Shown in pieces: positions 1,504-43,987 of a stretch of 64,000 nt of DNA (positions are counted from its first letter, which is position 1; every line of letters begins with the position of its first letter). The stretch lies in the NCBI GenBank assembly GCA_965223325.1, contig CBDCWI010000002.1, positions 4,352,001 through 4,416,000 on the forward strand, read 5' to 3'. Source of the stretch: Candidatus Multivoradales bacterium (lineage in GTDB: Bacteria > Acidobacteriota > Thermoanaerobaculia > Multivoradales > Multivoraceae). The translations under genes and the position numbers were made by a program. Below the pieces are notes generated by a model, which was not told the origin of the DNA, did no database searches, and saw nothing but the letters and a program-made list of their open reading frames with translations.

Positions 1504-1739
1504 GAGTTCTCCTCCGGAGCAATGGATGGCTCCGTGGTCGATGGGCCGCGGCAGCGGCCTCCCTCGACACGATGAATCAATGGGACGTCGACCCATTGTA
1601 CGACCCATCCGCCCTGTGGCTAGCCCGGTGTTGAGTTCCATCGTGGTCAGGAATCCGCGGCGCGCGCCAAGCGAGCGAAGGTCGACGCCATTTCGTCAAC
1701 GCGACGTGGTTGGCAAGGGGCCGCGCTGCGGGACGCTTG

Positions 1740-3649
1740 GATACGCCGGGATAAACCGGCATGGAGAAAGGAATGAGAGAGTCCCACCCTCGAAGGGGTA
1801 GCGACCCAGAGGGTCCCCGAGTCATGCGCCGGCTCCCGCGAGGGTGCGGTGAAGCGTTGACAGGGGCACACACAGGCCGGGTATTGAGCCGCGAAATAAG
1901 AATTTGGGAGTGCCGACGCTGTCAAGCGAAGCGGAAGGCGAGACTCCGTAGCGCGCTATCGCGAGCTCTGCGGCGACTCCCCGCGGTCGTAGACCCTGTG
2001 CATGTGTGGAATCTCCATGCGCGAGAACCGGGAGATCCGCGATCTGGCCAGTTGGGTATCTGGTCCGCATCGGGAAGGCTAGAGGCCGTAAGCCGATGAC
2101 GCACGGATGGCGGAAGTCAGACAGGCCCGTAGTACCTGCGAAGTCGTCGAACAACGGTGGGAGACCAGCGGCGGAGGCGGTGGAGGGAAGGGGCCTGGCC
2201 AAGGGGAACACGGGCAAGCAAAACGCACCCCGGACACAGAGCCGGATGGAGAGTGCGAGCAATGCGCTGGGCCGTGTACGAGAAGCCGCCCGCAGGGGCA
2301 AGGAAGTGAAGTTCACAGCGCTTCTTCACCACATCACGGTCGAGCGACTCCGGAGCGCATTTGACGTGTTGCACCGAGACGCAGCGGCAGGAGTGGACGG
2401 AGTGTCATGGAGCGAGTACGCAGAATCTTTGCTGAGCAATCTCGAGGACCTGCACTCTCGTGTCCACCGTGGGAGCTACCGGGCGAGTGCGACTCGTCGC
2501 GTCTACATCGAGAAATCGGATGGGCGGTTCCGACCGCTTGGCATCGCCACGTTGGAGGACAAGATCCTTCAGCGCGCCGTCGTCTCGGTGTTGGATGCGA
2601 TCTACGAGGAAGACTTTCTCGGGTACTCATACGGATTCAGGCGAGGCCGCAGCCAGCACGATGCTTTGGATGCGCTATTCGTTGGAATCACAAAGCGGAA
2701 GGTGAACTGGGTGCTCGACGCAGACATTCGTGGGTTCTTCGATGCCCTGGACCACGAGTGGCTGGTGAAGTTTCTCGAGCACCGTATCGGAGACCGTAGG
2801 ATCCTTCGCCTCATCCAGAAATGGCTGAGGTCCGGAGTGATGGAAGACGGTAAGTGGCACGCGAGCACGCGGGGGACTCCTCAGGGGGCGACGATTTCGC
2901 CTCTCCTCGGGAACGTGTACCTGCACTACGTGCTCGATCTCTGGGTCCAGCAGTGGAGGAAACGCAACGCGCTTGGGGACATGATCTTCGTGCGCTACGC
3001 GGATGACTTCATCGTTGGATTTGAGAGGCAGGAGGAGGCAGAACGATTCCTCGAGGAACTGAACCTGCGACTCCGTGACTTCTCGTTGGAGATCCAACCC
3101 GAGAAGACGCGCCTGCTGGAGTTTGGCCGCTTTGCGGCCTACAACCGACGCGCGCGAGGTCTCGGGCGGCCGGAGACCTTCGAGTTTCTAGGCTTTACGC
3201 ACTGCTGTGCGCAGTCTAGTCGAGGGAGGTTCTTGCTGAAGCGCATCACGAGCCGCCACCGAATCCGCAGGACACTGAAGGCTGTCGGTACGGCCCTTCT
3301 GGGACACCGACACTCGCCGCTACCAGAGCAAGGTCTCTGGCTGGGATCCGTGGTGCGAGGCTTCAATGCCTACTACGGCGTACCCGGCAACTCAGCGGCG
3401 TTGAACGCCTTTCGACAGGAGGTCATTCGGCACTGGATGCGCGCTCTGCGCCGACGCAGTGACAAAGACCGCACGTCCTGGAAACGGATGTGGGCCCTGG
3501 TGGCCCACTACCTACCCAAAGCCCGAGTCCAACATCCCTGGCCTGATGAGCGACTTGTCGTCAATACCTGAGGCAGGAGCCCAGTGCATTAGCAGTGCAC
3601 GCTGGGATCTGTGCGGGGGGCGCCGGGCAACCGGCGCTCCTACCGCGAT
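1740..3649 (+). mobile_element. Group II intron, copy 1 (1910 bp, endonuclease-less RT, bacterial class D/E-like)
   Basis: Domain V GAGCCCAGTGC...GCACGCTGGGATC (AGC triad, AC bulge); domain VI with bulged A, ending ...CCTACCGCGAT; EBS1 CAAGCG (1923-1928) is complementary to the exon end CGCTTG (1734-1739); boundaries taken from copy 2. Confidence 0.93.
2096..3571 (+). CDS. ltrA: Group II intron reverse transcriptase/maturase
   Basis: RT motifs FTALLHHI, RPLGI, SYGFRRGRS, DADIRGFFD, GTPQGATISPLLGNVYL, YADD and FEFLGF; X domain present, no HNH domain. Confidence 0.95.
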   Translation: MTHGWRKSDRPVVPAKSSNNGGRPAAEAVEGRGLAKGNTGKQNAPRTQSRMESASNALGRVREAARRGKEVKFTALLHHITVERLRSAFDVLHRDAAAGVDGVSWSEYAESLLSNLEDLHSRVHRGSYRASATRRVYIEKSDGRFRPLGIATLEDKILQRAVVSVLDAIYEEDFLGYSYGFRRGRSQHDALDALFVGITKRKVNWVLDADIRGFFDALDHEWLVKFLEHRIGDRRILRLIQKWLRSGVMEDGKWHASTRGTPQGATISPLLGNVYLHYVLDLWVQQWRKRNALGDMIFVRYADDFIVGFERQEEAERFLEELNLRLRDFSLEIQPEKTRLLEFGRFAAYNRRARGLGRPETFEFLGFTHCCAQSSRGRFLLKRITSRHRIRRTLKAVGTALLGHRHSPLPEQGLWLGSVVRGFNAYYGVPGNSAALNAFRQEVIRHWMRALRRRSDKDRTSWKRMWALVAHYLPKARVQHPWPDERLVVNT

Positions 3650-3777
3650 CGCCGCAAGAGTGATGAGTAGCGGAGCCGTGGTAACGCCTTTTCGAGGTCG
3701 AAGAAGCGGCAACTCCGGGCCGTCAACGAGTCACCGAAGAGGCCCTTCTGGCAGAGGCCGCAAAACCACGGCCCCCG

Positions 3778-14315: not shown

Positions 14316-14984
14316 ATGCGAGGAATCGAGCAGATCCCATGGTGCTACGACACTTTGATGGGAATCTCCGAGCGCACCGGTCTCGGACGTTGGCGCCGCT
14401 GGCTCACCTCCGGCAGCCAGGGACAAGTCCTCGAAGTCGGCAGCGGCACCGGCCGCAACCTGCCGCTCTACCCCGGCGACGCCAAAGTCATCGGCCTCGA
14501 GCCCGCCTTCGCATCACTCCTCGCAGCCCGCAAGAAGTCCCCCGATACCCGCCTCGTCCTCGGCAGCGCCGAAGACCTGCCCTTCAGACCGAACAGCTTC
14601 GACACCGTCGTCTCCGGCCTGGTCTTCTGCAGCGTCCCCGACCCCATGCGCGGCCTCTCCGAAGTCGCCCGAGTCCTCCGCCCAAGCGGCACCCTGCGCA
14701 TGTTGGAGCACGTCCGCGCCAAGAGCCACTGGGGAGGAAGATTCCAGGACCTCATTCTGCCCCCCTGGAAATTCGTCACCGGCGGCTGTCACCTCAACCG
14801 TGACACCGAAGCCAACGTAAGAAACGCCGGCTTCCAGATCCAGCCCGACCGGAAAGAAGACGGCTCCCTACGCTGCTTCAGCGCAGTTCCGCCGCGCGAG
14901 GTGAGTCGCGATCGAGTCCAAGCCGAGGGCCGTATGACCCCGTTGACGCCGCCTCGGGGCAACGGCCTGCAGCTCGGGTTGTAG
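14316..14984 (+). CDS. Class I SAM-dependent methyltransferase (its 3' end lies inside repeat unit A)
   Basis: Motifs VLEVGSGTG, AEDLPF..SFDTVV and EVARVLRPSG. Confidence 0.9.
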   Translation: MRGIEQIPWCYDTLMGISERTGLGRWRRWLTSGSQGQVLEVGSGTGRNLPLYPGDAKVIGLEPAFASLLAARKKSPDTRLVLGSAEDLPFRPNSFDTVVSGLVFCSVPDPMRGLSEVARVLRPSGTLRMLEHVRAKSHWGGRFQDLILPPWKFVTGGCHLNRDTEANVRNAGFQIQPDRKEDGSLRCFSAVPPREVSRDRVQAEGRMTPLTPPRGNGLQLGL

Positions 14985-15652
14985 CCGTAGAATCCGAGTA
15001 GGCGCGCGCCCAGCGACTCGCAGTCGTTCGCCGCGTGTACAGGGCGGCCTCCCGGCGCCGTCGGCCCGCGCTTCGGACCGCTTGCGCCGTCCCCCTTGAG
15101 GGGGTACCAGGGGGTGAGGTGACATTGATTGGGGTCGTGGTAACGACGGATCGCGCTCGCGAGATCGCCTCTCTCTACCAACAGCCTCACCCAAGCCGAG
15201 CGCGATACGAGGGCCGTATGACCCCGTTGACGCCGCCTCGGGGCAACGGCCTGCAGCTCGGGTTGTAGCCGTAGAATCCGAGTAGGCGCGCGCCCAGCGA
15301 CTCGCAGTCGTTCGCCGCGTGTACAGGGCGGCCTCCCGGCGCCGTCGGCCCGCGCTTCGGACCGCTTGCGCCGTCCCCCTTGAGGGGGTACCAGGGGGTG
15401 AGGTGACATTGATTGGGGTCGTGGTAACGACGGATCGCGCTCGCGAGATCGCCTCTCTCTACCAACAGCCTCACCCAAGCCGAGCGCGATACGAGGGCCG
15501 TATGACCACGTTGACGTCGCGTTTCGGGAACTGTGAACCCATCAAGTCATAGCCGTAGAATCCGAGTAGGCGCGCGCCCAGCGACTCGCAGTCGTTCGCC
15601 GCGTGTACAGGGCGGCCTCCCGGCGCCGTCGGCCCGCGCTTCGGACCGCTTG

Positions 15653-17562
15653 GATACGCCGGGATAAACCGGCATGGAGAAAGGAATGAGAGAGTCCCAC
15701 CCTCGAAGGGGTAGCGACCCAGAGGGTCCCCGAGTCATGCGCCGGCTCCCGCGAGGGTGCGGTGAAGCGTTGACAGGGGCACACACAGGCCGGGTATTGA
15801 GCCGCGAAATAAGAATTTGGGAGTGCCGACGCTGTCAAGCGAAGCGGAAGGCGAGACTCCGTAGCGCGCTATCGCGAGCTCTGCGGCGACTCCCCGCGGT
15901 CGTAGACCCTGTGCATGTGTGGAATCTCCATGCGCGAGAACCGGGAGATCCGCGATCTGGCCAGTTGGGTATCTGGTCCGCATCGGGAAGGCTAGAGGCC
16001 GTAAGCCGATGACGCACGGATGGCGGAAGTCAGACAGGCCCGTAGTACCTGCGAAGTCGTCGAACAACGGTGGGAGACCAGCGGCGGAGGCGGTGGAGGG
16101 AAGGGGCCTGGCCAAGGGGAACACGGGCAAGCAAAACGCACCCCGGACACAGAGCCGGATGGAGAGTGCGAGCAATGCGCTGGGCCGTGTACGAGAAGCC
16201 GCCCGCAGGGGCAAGGAAGTGAAGTTCACAGCGCTTCTTCACCACATCACGGTCGAGCGACTCCGGAGCGCATTTGACGTGTTGCACCGAGACGCAGCGG
16301 CAGGAGTGGACGGAGTGTCATGGAGCGAGTACGCAGAATCTTTGCTGAGCAATCTCGAGGACCTGCACTCTCGTGTCCACCGTGGGAGCTACCGGGCGAG
16401 TGCGACTCGTCGCGTCTACATCGAGAAATCGGATGGGCGGTTCCGACCGCTTGGCATCGCCACGTTGGAGGACAAGATCCTTCAGCGCGCCGTCGTCTCG
16501 GTGTTGGATGCGATCTACGAGGAAGACTTTCTCGGGTACTCATACGGATTCAGGCGAGGCCGCAGCCAGCACGATGCTTTGGATGCGCTATTCGTTGGAA
16601 TCACAAAGCGGAAGGTGAACTGGGTGCTCGACGCAGACATTCGTGGGTTCTTCGATGCCCTGGACCACGAGTGGCTGGTGAAGTTTCTCGAGCACCGTAT
16701 CGGAGACCGTAGGATCCTTCGCCTCATCCAGAAATGGCTGAGGTCCGGAGTGATGGAAGACGGTAAGTGGCACGCGAGCACGCGGGGGACTCCTCAGGGG
16801 GCGACGATTTCGCCTCTCCTCGGGAACGTGTACCTGCACTACGTGCTCGATCTCTGGGTCCAGCAGTGGAGGAAACGCAACGCGCTTGGGGACATGATCT
16901 TCGTGCGCTACGCGGATGACTTCATCGTTGGATTTGAGAGGCAGGAGGAGGCAGAACGATTCCTCGAGGAACTGAACCTGCGACTCCGTGACTTCTCGTT
17001 GGAGATCCAACCCGAGAAGACGCGCCTGCTGGAGTTTGGCCGCTTTGCGGCCTACAACCGACGCGCGCGAGGTCTCGGGCGGCCGGAGACCTTCGAGTTT
17101 CTAGGCTTTACGCACTGCTGTGCGCAGTCTAGTCGAGGGAGGTTCTTGCTGAAGCGCATCACGAGCCGCCACCGAATCCGCAGGACACTGAAGGCTGTCG
17201 GTACGGCCCTTCTGGGACACCGACACTCGCCGCTACCAGAGCAAGGTCTCTGGCTGGGATCCGTGGTGCGAGGCTTCAATGCCTACTACGGCGTACCCGG
17301 CAACTCAGCGGCGTTGAACGCCTTTCGACAGGAGGTCATTCGGCACTGGATGCGCGCTCTGCGCCGACGCAGTGACAAAGACCGCACGTCCTGGAAACGG
17401 ATGTGGGCCCTGGTGGCCCACTACCTACCCAAAGCCCGAGTCCAACATCCCTGGCCTGATGAGCGACTTGTCGTCAATACCTGAGGCAGGAGCCCAGTGC
17501 ATTAGCAGTGCACGCTGGGATCTGTGCGGGGGGCGCCGGGCAACCGGCGCTCCTACCGCGAT
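15653..17562 (+). mobile_element. Group II intron, copy 2 (apparently identical to copy 1)
   Basis: Constant 13913-bp offset and identical ORF translations; the empty site CGGACCGCTTG|CGCCGTCCCCC in units A and B defines both ends. Confidence 0.95.
16009..17484 (+). CDS. ltrA: Group II intron reverse transcriptase/maturase
   Basis: Same protein as 2096-3571 (YADD). Confidence 0.95.
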   Translation: MTHGWRKSDRPVVPAKSSNNGGRPAAEAVEGRGLAKGNTGKQNAPRTQSRMESASNALGRVREAARRGKEVKFTALLHHITVERLRSAFDVLHRDAAAGVDGVSWSEYAESLLSNLEDLHSRVHRGSYRASATRRVYIEKSDGRFRPLGIATLEDKILQRAVVSVLDAIYEEDFLGYSYGFRRGRSQHDALDALFVGITKRKVNWVLDADIRGFFDALDHEWLVKFLEHRIGDRRILRLIQKWLRSGVMEDGKWHASTRGTPQGATISPLLGNVYLHYVLDLWVQQWRKRNALGDMIFVRYADDFIVGFERQEEAERFLEELNLRLRDFSLEIQPEKTRLLEFGRFAAYNRRARGLGRPETFEFLGFTHCCAQSSRGRFLLKRITSRHRIRRTLKAVGTALLGHRHSPLPEQGLWLGSVVRGFNAYYGVPGNSAALNAFRQEVIRHWMRALRRRSDKDRTSWKRMWALVAHYLPKARVQHPWPDERLVVNT

Positions 17563-17801
17563 CGCCGTCCCCCTTGAGGGGGTACCAGGGGGTGAGGTGA
17601 CATTGATTGGGGTCGTGGTAACGACGGATCGCGCTCGCGAGATCGCCTCTCTCTACCAACAGCCTCACCTTGAGGGGGTACCAGGGGGTGAGGTGACATT
17701 GATTGGGGTCGTGGTAACGACGGATCGCGCTCGCGAGATCGCCTCTCTCTACCAACAGAGGGCCGAGTAGGCGCGCGCCCAGCGTATGACCACGACCCCA
17801 A

Positions 17802-42359: not shown

Positions 42360-43628
42360 GTGGAGCCCACTCTCAACGTCTACGGATGGGTCGTGCTGGT
42401 ATCCCTCTTGGGTTTCTGGGCACTCGGCCTGGTGATGCGGTGGCTCGATCGCCGCAACTTCGCACGCCAGCGTCCGCCGGGTCTCGAACGTGTCTATGAC
42501 GAGGAGCAGTACGCGCGTGCCCGTTCCTACACCGGCGTTCGGTCTCGCTTTGGCGCGCTGGTGGCGACCTTCGACCTCATCGTGCTCTTGGCCTTCTGGG
42601 GCCTCGGAGGTTTCGGTTGGTTGGACGAAACCGTGCGTTCGCTTGCCGACCGCTGGTTCGGGGGCCACCCCATCGCCATCGGCCTGGGGTTCGTGGGAGC
42701 GCTCGGCGTTGGGCAGGCACTGCTCGCGTTGCCGTTTCAGGTCTGGTCGACCTTCGTCATCGAGGAGCGCTTCGGCTTCAACCGAACGACCCTACGCACC
42801 TTCGTTGTTGACCTCATCAAGGGTGCTCTTGTCGGTGTCGTGCTCGGCACGCCGCTCCTCGCGGCTGTACTCGCTTTCTTCCACTACGGAGGCCCGCAGG
42901 CCTGGCTCTGGGCCTGGCTCTTCGTGACCGTTTTCGTGGTGGCGGTTCAGTACGTCGTCCCGACCTGGATCATGCCGCTGTTTAACAAGTTCGAGCCTCT
43001 CGAAGATGGCGAGCTCCGTGAGCGTCTTACCGAGTACGCCGAGGAGGTCGAGTTCCCGTTGCAGGAGGTCTTTGTCATTGATGGCTCGCGGCGATCGAAC
43101 AAGGCCAACGCGTTCTTTACCGGTTTTGGCAAGCGCAAGCGCATCGCTCTTTTCGACACCCTCGTCGAAAGCCACACAGTGCCCGAGCTGCTCGCGGTGT
43201 TGGCTCACGAGGTTGGTCACTACAAGAAGAAGCATCTCGTGATCGGCATGGCGCTTTCGATTGTGCAGACGGGCTTCATGTTGTGGCTCTTCGGCACCGC
43301 CATCCGCCAGGAGGGTCTCTTTCGTGCCTTCGGCGTCGGCCAGCCTTCCGTGTGGGCAGGCATGGTGTTCTTCGGCCTCTTGATGGCACCCCTCGGCCTG
43401 GTCCTCGGCCCCCTGGCCAGCTACATCTCGCGTCGCCACGAATTCCAGGCCGATCGCTGGGCCGTCGAAACCACCGGCCACGCCAAAGAACTCGTCTCAG
43501 CCCTCCTCAAACTCTCCACCGACAACCTCGCCCACCCAACCCCCCACCCCCTCCGCGTCGCGATGGAGTACTCGCACCCGCCGTTGTTGGTGCGGATAGG
43601 AGCGATCGAGGAGTTGGAGCCGTCGTAG
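42360..43628 (+). CDS. M48 family (Ste24-like) membrane metallopeptidase
   Basis: Motifs FVIEERFGFN, NAFFTGFG, HEVGH, EFQAD and YSHPP. Confidence 0.95.
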   Translation: MEPTLNVYGWVVLVSLLGFWALGLVMRWLDRRNFARQRPPGLERVYDEEQYARARSYTGVRSRFGALVATFDLIVLLAFWGLGGFGWLDETVRSLADRWFGGHPIAIGLGFVGALGVGQALLALPFQVWSTFVIEERFGFNRTTLRTFVVDLIKGALVGVVLGTPLLAAVLAFFHYGGPQAWLWAWLFVTVFVVAVQYVVPTWIMPLFNKFEPLEDGELRERLTEYAEEVEFPLQEVFVIDGSRRSNKANAFFTGFGKRKRIALFDTLVESHTVPELLAVLAHEVGHYKKKHLVIGMALSIVQTGFMLWLFGTAIRQEGLFRAFGVGQPSVWAGMVFFGLLMAPLGLVLGPLASYISRRHEFQADRWAVETTGHAKELVSALLKLSTDNLAHPTPHPLRVAMEYSHPPLLVRIGAIEELEPS

Positions 43629-43987
43629 CGCTCTGCTTCGTCAACGGACTCTCGGGTGCGAGTACGAAGGCGCCGTAGGCGCCTATCAGGAGAGTTCGGC
43701 GGCGAGAGGACGTGCTACATGCACGTCCGTAGCCGCCTCGCACCCGCCGTTGTTGGTGCGGTTGCGGGCGATCGAGGAGCTGGGGTCGTCGTAGCTCTTG
43801 GCTTCGTGAACGGACTCTCGGGTGCGAGTACGAAGGCGCCGTAGGCGCCTATCAGGAGAGTTCGGCGGCGAGAGGACGTGCTACATGCACGTCCGTAGCC
43901 GCCTCGCACCCGCCGTTGTTGGTGCGGTTGCGGGCGATCGAGGAGTTGGAGCCGTCGTAGCTCTTGGCTTCGTCAACGGACTCTCGG
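43571..43987. repeat. 166-bp tandem array (2.5 units at 43571, 43737, 43903) containing the M48 gene 3' end
   Basis: Direct comparison; hairpins TAGGCGCCTA and GGACGTGC-TACAT-GCACGTCC. Confidence 0.93.

Follow-up and report, generated by a model that had tools for sequence, protein, structure and literature searches.

A recently mobile bacterial group II intron that starts with GAUACG, and 5′ starts of variable length called among its relatives

Results

A 1910-nt group II intron lies twice in the window

The window analysed here is a 64,000-nt stretch of the genome of Candidatus Multivoradales bacterium (contig CBDCWI010000002.1, positions 4,352,001 to 4,416,000 of the forward strand), and window positions are used throughout unless a contig is named. 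It contains two identical copies of a 1910-nt group II intron, each of which encodes a reverse transcriptase (RT), and a tandem array of a 284-nt repeat, the third unit of which is split by copy 2 (Table 1). The intron starts with GAUACG and ends with GAU. Group II introns are generally treated as starting with GUGYG, a near-universal motif on which boundary-finding pipelines depend; GUGYG is a consensus and not an absolute requirement, and the yeast intron ai5γ starts with GAGCG.

We set the ends of the intron by comparing filled and empty sites. With a slash marking each junction, the filled site reads ...GACCGCTTG/GATACGCC...CCGCGAT/CGCCG..., so that CGCCGTCCCCC resumes 3′ of the intron, and two empty repeat units in the window read ...GACCGCTTG/CGCCGTCCCCC.... 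After CTTG the filled site has G where the empty sites have C, and before CGCCG it has T where they have G. Because these flanking bases differ, the boundary has no room to slide.

A search of the genome revealed 14 full-length copies, 12 of which are identical and two of which carry one substitution each. Every full copy starts with GAUACG, is preceded by CGCTTG and is followed by C. Partial copies of 236 nt (a 3′ fragment) and 36 nt are also present. The fragment, outside the window at G000:C2:4242250-4242487, comprises the last 236 nt of the intron with 97% identity, and a 5′-truncated copy of this kind is expected from incomplete reverse transcription or decay. Among contigs of sequencing runs, X5 and X6 matched only the flanks of other copies in the same genome, and X7 consists of short pieces with unrelated continuations. 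It is barely conceivable that the boundary is mis-set and that a true canonical start lies elsewhere: besides the evidence of the empty sites, all 14 copies leave the flanking sequence at the same bases, and there is no GUGYG in the repeat upstream of the Rfam match described below.

Table 1. Features of the intron, its copies and its homing sites in the window
Feature	Position	Strand	Basis
IBS1 (CGCTTG), final six bases of the 5′ exon	1734..1739	+	precedes 14/14 copies; 6/6 complementary to EBS1
Group II intron copy 1, 1910 nt	1740..3649	+	empty-site comparison; 14 full copies; RF02005, 180.6 bits
Non-canonical 5′ terminus GAUACG, read as G1, 2-nt spacer AU, ε bases A4 and C5, G6	1740..1745	+	all 14 copies; right-justified alignment with GUGCG and GAAAGCG of relatives
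CCGG-GAUAAA-CCGG segment right after the 5′ hexamer	1746..1759	+	possible local hairpin or long-range pair
Domain I core	1778..1996	+	RF02005 match
α (GCGA)	1801..1804	+	covariation with 1959-1962
Proposed ε′	1854..1855	+	column pair 5/153
EBS1 (CAAGCG), ID3 hairpin loop	1923..1928	+	EBS1/5′-exon covariation among relatives, 60/75 with six pairs
α′ (UCGC), terminal loop of DId3 hairpin	1959..1962	+	covariation; placement is an IIE/IIF idiosyncrasy per PMC3753933
Intron-encoded RT/maturase, 491 aa	2096..3571	+	TIGR04416; Pfam RVT_1; solved relatives
Domain V, 33 nt: AGC triad, 2-nt bulge, 5-nt loop UAGCA, G opposite A at third pair	3577..3609	+	inspection; same form in aligned 3′ regions of relatives
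Domain VI; A3642 is bulged and lies 7 nt from the 3′ splice site	3613..3646	+	inspection
First base of the 3′ exon, C, expected IBS3	3650..3650	+	C after 14/14 copies
Tandem array, 284-nt period, core containing the homing site; resumes past copy 2 at 17563-17760	14913..15652	+	repeat family model R1
Empty homing site 1, CGCTTG/CGCCG, junction between 15084 and 15085; second empty junction between 15368 and 15369	15079..15089	+	
Group II intron copy 2	15653..17562	+	identical to copy 1

Ribozyme domains and reverse transcriptase

The Rfam model RF02005 (group-II-D1D4-6) matches the intron over the full length of the model (positions 1-225), with a score of 180.6 bits (E 9e-53) against a gathering score of 49. 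This score, together with the 14 near-identical 1.9-kb copies, excludes chance. Exon-binding site 1 (EBS1) occupies the ID3 hairpin loop, which is unpaired in RF02005, and pairs at all six positions with intron-binding site 1 (IBS1), CGCUUG, at the end of the 5′ exon. We also looked in the intron for EBS2, by eye, and for an EBS3 partner, and found no convincing candidate for either. Conservation upstream of IBS1 is confounded as evidence for an EBS2-IBS2 pairing, because all targets come from one repeat family.

The intron's open reading frame (ORF) encodes an RT/maturase with a YADD motif, which scores 342.6 bits with TIGR04416 (NCBIfam) against a cut-off of 300, and the frame is intact in both window copies. 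Pfam detects RVT_1 only in this protein, and no endonuclease domain. The closest solved structures in the PDB are group II intron RTs; these matches do not separate the classes, the RTs of IIC, IIA and IIB introns all being found at E 1e-36 to 1e-41.

Domains V and VI follow the ORF. Domain VI has a bulged A, and the intron presumably splices by branching. The 3′ end, GAU, fits the AY rule, and the relatives described below conserve CCCUACCGCGAY. The Rfam model of domains V and VI, RF00029, gives no match to the intron at its gathering score or at E values up to 1. In the relatives, domain V likewise has a 5-nt loop and a non-Watson-Crick pair below the triad, mostly G opposite A and in a few cases A opposite C or G. 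We read this odd form, seen in the aligned 3′ regions, as a trait of the lineage, and annotation based on RF00029 will overlook the 3′ end of its introns.

The original prediction had described a recently mobile group II intron that has an unambiguous boundary, supported by EBS1-IBS1 pairing, and a 5′ end other than GUGYG, and each of these points is borne out by the model matches, the copies and the empty sites. The boundary is exact, but the prediction placed the start of the element at 1734, whereas the intron itself starts at 1740, since 1734-1739 is IBS1.

The homing target is the core of a tandem repeat

Elsewhere in the genome there are 87-102 empty homing sites. They are part of a single repeat family, whose core spans ~140 nt. 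Most units of the family stand head to tail in ~20 arrays, which comprise 2-6 units each and have periods of 190-390 nt (examples beyond the window are G000:C2:1081712-1082939 and C1:774495-775676). With a covariance model of this core, at least 79 copies are detected in the genome. Among 40 relatives, including one same-genus genome that is 99% complete, the model yielded one marginal match (E 8.8e-4) and none in the other 39, and no Rfam family matches the repeat. The core forms a long-range helix between GGCGCGCG and CGC-UU-GCGCC, one pair of which covaries (GC 13, CG 4, none broken). The insertion point lies inside the 3′ strand of this helix, and the orientation of the intron is always that of the repeat unit.

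In one array, a promoter-like TAGACA-N17-TAGAAT, close to the consensus, is seen by eye just upstream of each core, and a promoter scan of the array in the window returned 0 sites. The units may be small-RNA genes of one family, or the repeat may be a selfish element of satellite type. The window contains another tandem repeat at 43571-43987, with a 166-nt period, 2.5 copies and 94% matches.

One intron copy, near 2.35 Mb on contig C2, lies outside the repeat family and has only GCGCTTG/CAG in common with the other sites, which suggests that IBS1 followed by C is the minimal requirement. Retrohoming would start with the excised RNA reverse-splicing into DNA at a CGCTTG that pairs with EBS1 and is followed by C. 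The intron's own RT would then copy the inserted RNA, probably from host replication primers, by analogy with other introns that lack an endonuclease. The target is the conserved core of a species-specific, tandemly arrayed repeat, and the repetition of this core would explain the 14 copies.

Relatives keep G1 and vary the distance to the downstream block

The survey of relatives covers 101 loci, of which 15 come from species genomes, 6 from plasmids and 80 from metagenomes; their RTs are 49-63% identical to the window RT. In same-family genomes, RF02005 matches occur in 5 of the 20 searched; the same-genus match is 5′-truncated, and none is a close copy. The 5′ region is present in 85 of the 101 loci, nine of which gave no call, being truncated or without anchor motifs. 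For each of the remainder, the boundary was called as the one of seven registers in which six exon bases pair best with EBS1, the position of EBS1 in its loop being copied from the window intron; a free EBS1 register gave many ties, and the fixed register was therefore used. This gave calls for 76 loci, or 77 with the window intron, of which 72 are unambiguous, with at least five pairs and a better fit than every other register.

The pairing on which these calls depend is far stronger with an intron's own exon than with those of other loci. With their own exons, 60 of 75 introns form six pairs and 13 of 75 form five. In a mismatched control, in which each EBS1 was set against the exons of other loci and the best of seven registers was taken (5404 trials), six pairs were found in 3.6% and five pairs in 20.9%.

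The 72 unambiguous starts comprise GUGCG (32), GAAAGCG (13), GUACG (9), GAGCG (6), GUAGCG (3), GUUGCG (2) and GAUAGCG (2), with GAUACG (the window intron), GAUGCG, GAAGCG, GACAGCG and UGCG found once each. A third of them (24 of 72) are thus 6 or 7 nt long, and all but one of the 72 begin with G. The 24 distinct 6- or 7-nt cases carry 23 different EBS1 sequences, which pair with their own exons at six of six positions in 20 cases and at five of six in the other four. EBS1 keeps the same register in its loop whether the start has 5, 6 or 7 nt.

We aligned the window intron with 63 relatives (64 sequences in total), setting the starts flush at their 3′ side and leaving out locus L057, whose call begins with U. 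In this alignment an RCG block, with CCGG behind it, is constant, and the variation is confined to the bases that separate G1 from RCG. This interval measures 1 nt in GUGCG, GAGCG and GUACG, 2 nt in GAUGCG, GUUGCG, GAAGCG, GUAGCG and GAUACG, and 3 nt in GAAAGCG, GAUAGCG and GACAGCG. The motif nearest to that of the window intron, GAUGCG of locus L080, is one transition away.

An RT tree was built from 70 rows, after removal of loci without a motif call, of RT matches shorter than 430 aa or containing stops, and of four exact duplicates. On this tree the motif must have changed 26 times or more, and starts must have switched 13 times or more between the 5-nt form and the 6- or 7-nt forms. A long terminal branch (0.46) leads to the window RT, in an unresolved region of the tree, so the start of the window intron's ancestor cannot be named. 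Going by the called starts, departures of this kind are common in the lineage, and the window intron is one of them.

A kept G1 followed by a spacer of 1-3 nt ahead of the ε/λ bases appears to be a better description of these starts than the one given by the original prediction, which took the motif as GUGCG with one extra 5′ G and a shifted splice site; both the near-constant first G and the conserved RCG block, with variation only between the two, go against it. In the window intron, AU would occupy the place of the single U2 of other introns, ahead of the ε/λ bases A-C-G, and the ribozyme core would tolerate a small bulge beside the scissile phosphate.

The alternative is that a degenerate pentamer, AUACG in place of GUGCG, is still used and that the splice site has moved one base upstream through a change of the EBS1-IBS1 register. 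Upstream-shifted 5′ splice sites do exist (8 nt in C.te.I1 and 1-33 nt in fungal rRNA introns, according to passages of PMC4024640 and PMC4424553), and for any single sequence the two descriptions are indistinguishable. However, a pure register shift would not need G as the new first base, which in 71 of the 72 is G whatever the length of the start, and the EBS1 loop register is the same in all three length forms. Moreover, the known shifted introns, as those passages describe them, lack an RT, EBS2 and the branch A and are hydrolytic, whereas the window intron has an intact RT, a bulged A and 14 copies. We consider a shifted splice site unlikely, and a lengthened spacer behind G1 the preferable reading.

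Tertiary pairings of the 5′ terminus

Pairings in the alignment of 64 sequences were assessed for ten pairs, in which 94.4% of cells are paired, against 12-44% when the partners are slid. Covariation gives good support to the pairing of α (GCGA) with α′ (UCGC): 98.4% of cells are paired, ten double changes occur at one pair, and the third pair is GC in 48 sequences, CG in 5, AU in 4, UA in 1 and GU in 2.

For ε′ we propose the G and C within GAAGCG, a placement based on their position and on where we take ε′ to lie in IIB and IIC introns, and one that we regard as plausible from the alignment. The first ε base and its proposed partner are GC in 57 sequences, AU in 5 and GU in 1, and form a non-pair in one, the window intron, in which A stands opposite C; the second is CG in all 64. 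The suggestion in the original prediction that the ε contacts are altered is thus upheld, while the compensatory change in ε′ that it envisaged is absent at the proposed partner, the C there being unchanged. Such an A in place of G at the first ε position would form either a mismatch or a protonated A-C wobble.

The CCGG behind the start can be drawn in two ways. As a local hairpin with the second CCGG, its four pairs are CG in 52 sequences, CG in 64, GC in 55 with AU in 2, and GC in 64. Alternatively, the first CCGG pairs with a CCGG near the 3′ end of domain I (~2020-2026), which is the arrangement favoured by the minimum-energy fold. In the two informative relatives, L024 and L028, all three CCGG segments change together and both alternatives covary. 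These segments may represent an alternative-pairing element beside the 5′ splice site.

The unpaired ε position bears on a further account, in which the window intron is a poor or hydrolysis-only splicer, its copies stem from one past burst and its start is slightly deleterious baggage. Being the only such position among the 64 sequences, it fits that account, as do the long terminal branch of the RT and the excess of empty sites (~87-102) over 14 filled ones. On the other hand, the near-identity of the copies, 12 of 14 being identical and two differing by a single base, points to retrohoming that is very recent and has occurred repeatedly. The window copies also have an intact RT frame, and retrohoming requires a lariat able to reverse-splice. 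We therefore regard poor splicing as quite improbable.

Discussion

Our analysis indicates that the window probably carries a complete, recently mobile bacterial intron that is small and IIB-like, lacks an endonuclease, shares two RNA idiosyncrasies with IIE and IIF introns, and has a genuinely non-canonical start in which G1 is kept and a lengthened spacer, probably bulged out, separates it from the ε/λ bases. Several observations weigh against this interpretation. A search for RNA evidence of splicing listed no RNA run that contains the stretch, and the one RNA run compared with it (X24, polyA) gave 0 reads. Domain V has G opposite A below the catalytic triad and is missed by RF00029. The boundaries of the relatives are deduced from EBS1-IBS1 pairing, in a register taken from the window intron. 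The ε′ assignment has three independent contrasts on the tree, two in agreement and one without a difference (sign test p ~0.5), and the change from C to U at ε′ would also fit the replacement of a G-C by a G-U pair in the helix of the Rfam model at this place. In addition, the tentative class E/F-like label rests on RNA features.

More tentatively, and with somewhat less than even confidence, we propose that the whole lineage consists of actively mobile, RT-encoding introns with an elastic 5′ terminus, in which G1 and the ε/λ bases are 1, 2 or 3 nt apart, with 13 or more switches between the 5-nt and the longer forms. Taken alone, the window intron is a modest variant. If the called boundaries of its relatives are right, a common bacterial lineage routinely breaks the GUGYG rule in both length and sequence and is mobile nevertheless, which would bear on the way in which the catalytic core holds the 5′ splice site, on intron annotation and on the design of retargeted introns. 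An elastic terminus would mean that a bulge of varying length at the 5′ splice site can be accommodated by the active site and during reverse splicing into DNA, and would supply natural variants for the study of 5′ splice-site positioning, in parallel to the spliceosome.

As to whether the clade is already documented with GAUAC starts, which the original prediction had raised, databases hold many relatives with such starts, and we found no paper that describes them. Specifically, no paper on 6- or 7-nt starts in a mobile bacterial lineage was found among the matches, most of which were judged from their listing, and the supplement of PMC4028801 or the intron database may record such starts. 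Among papers on GUACG or GAGCG together with group II introns, none concerns bacterial intron termini by its title or abstract.

Comparison with known group II introns

Among the known classes, the window intron resembles IIE and IIF (Cl.be.I2, P.l.I1 and Pe.th.I2) in its 5-nt domain V loop, its α′ in the terminal loop of DId3, its 6-bp EBS1-IBS1 pairing and its lack of an endonuclease. Section 4 of Nagy et al. 2013 (PMC3753933) names as idiosyncrasies of IIE and IIF an α′ at the tip of the DId3 stem-loop and a 5-nt domain V loop instead of a GNRA tetraloop, and gives a ribozyme of 450-700 nt without the ORF; by the portion of PMC3552965 that treats them, class E and F RTs lack the endonuclease domain. 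Without its ORF the window intron measures 434 nt (1910 - 1476), slightly below that range. It differs from these introns in its start: in the part of PMC3753933 that deals with splice sites, Cl.be.I2 and Pe.th.I2 have canonical ones, and Ge.ur.I1-1 has a predicted site of GUGYG type together with alternative upstream sites, whereas the window intron starts with GAUACG.

Plasmid introns of the Kl.pn.I5 / Se.ma.I1 type, from Klebsiella, Enterobacter, Burkholderia, Pseudomonas and Rhizobium, have RTs that are 56-59% identical to the window RT over the full length, and the same domain I architecture, domains V and VI and 3′ end. They differ in their 5-nt starts (GUGCG or GAGCG) and in their homing sites. 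The Klebsiella-type relative is presumably Kl.pn.I5, a name taken from PMC6764390 and PMC3522654. Two plasmid relatives, L029 and L030, from Burkholderia and Enterobacter, lie directly upstream of imuA and umuD, within a CTGT...ACAG that resembles an SOS (LexA) operator.

The likeness to class IIC lies in the compact form of the window intron, in its insertion into a repeated, helix-forming element, and in its ends, which read GAUACG-CCGG...CCGG-CAUGG ... CCUACCGCGAU and resemble the IIC boundary consensus, given in the relevant passage of PMC4028801 as 5′ GUNYGCCNRGCAUGG ... CCUACYCGAU 3′. In contrast to IIC introns, it has a 6-bp rather than a ~4-bp IBS1-EBS1 pairing, its site lies inside a helix strand and not after a terminator hairpin, and its RT has an N-terminal extension and is distant from the solved IIC RTs (E ~1e-41, fingers and palm only). 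Assignment to class IIC was rejected, as the 6-bp IBS1 and the site within the 3′ strand of a long-range helix do not fit.

Introns with altered splice sites offer a parallel to the lengthened spacer. According to the passages concerned in McNeil and Zimmerly 2014 (PMC4024640), C.te.I1 splices 8 nt upstream of GUGYG, and the IIB1 introns of fungal mitochondrial rRNA genes splice 1-33 nt upstream (Li et al. 2011, cited there); the same passages, and likewise those in the review PMC4424553, describe these introns as immobile, hydrolytic and without a branch A. They share with the window intron the presence of extra bases between the scissile bond and the ε/λ bases. In C.te.I1 and the fungal introns, however, an intact GUGYG stands behind a spacer of 1-33 nt, and the RT and branch A have been lost in favour of hydrolysis, whereas in the lineage of the window intron one or two extra bases follow a kept G1, and the window intron itself is mobile and has kept its RT and its bulged A. 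The cited portion of McNeil and Zimmerly 2014 suggests that mobile introns may need IBS1 to adjoin GUGYG for reverse splicing, and an elastic terminus, if it is real, would contradict that suggestion.

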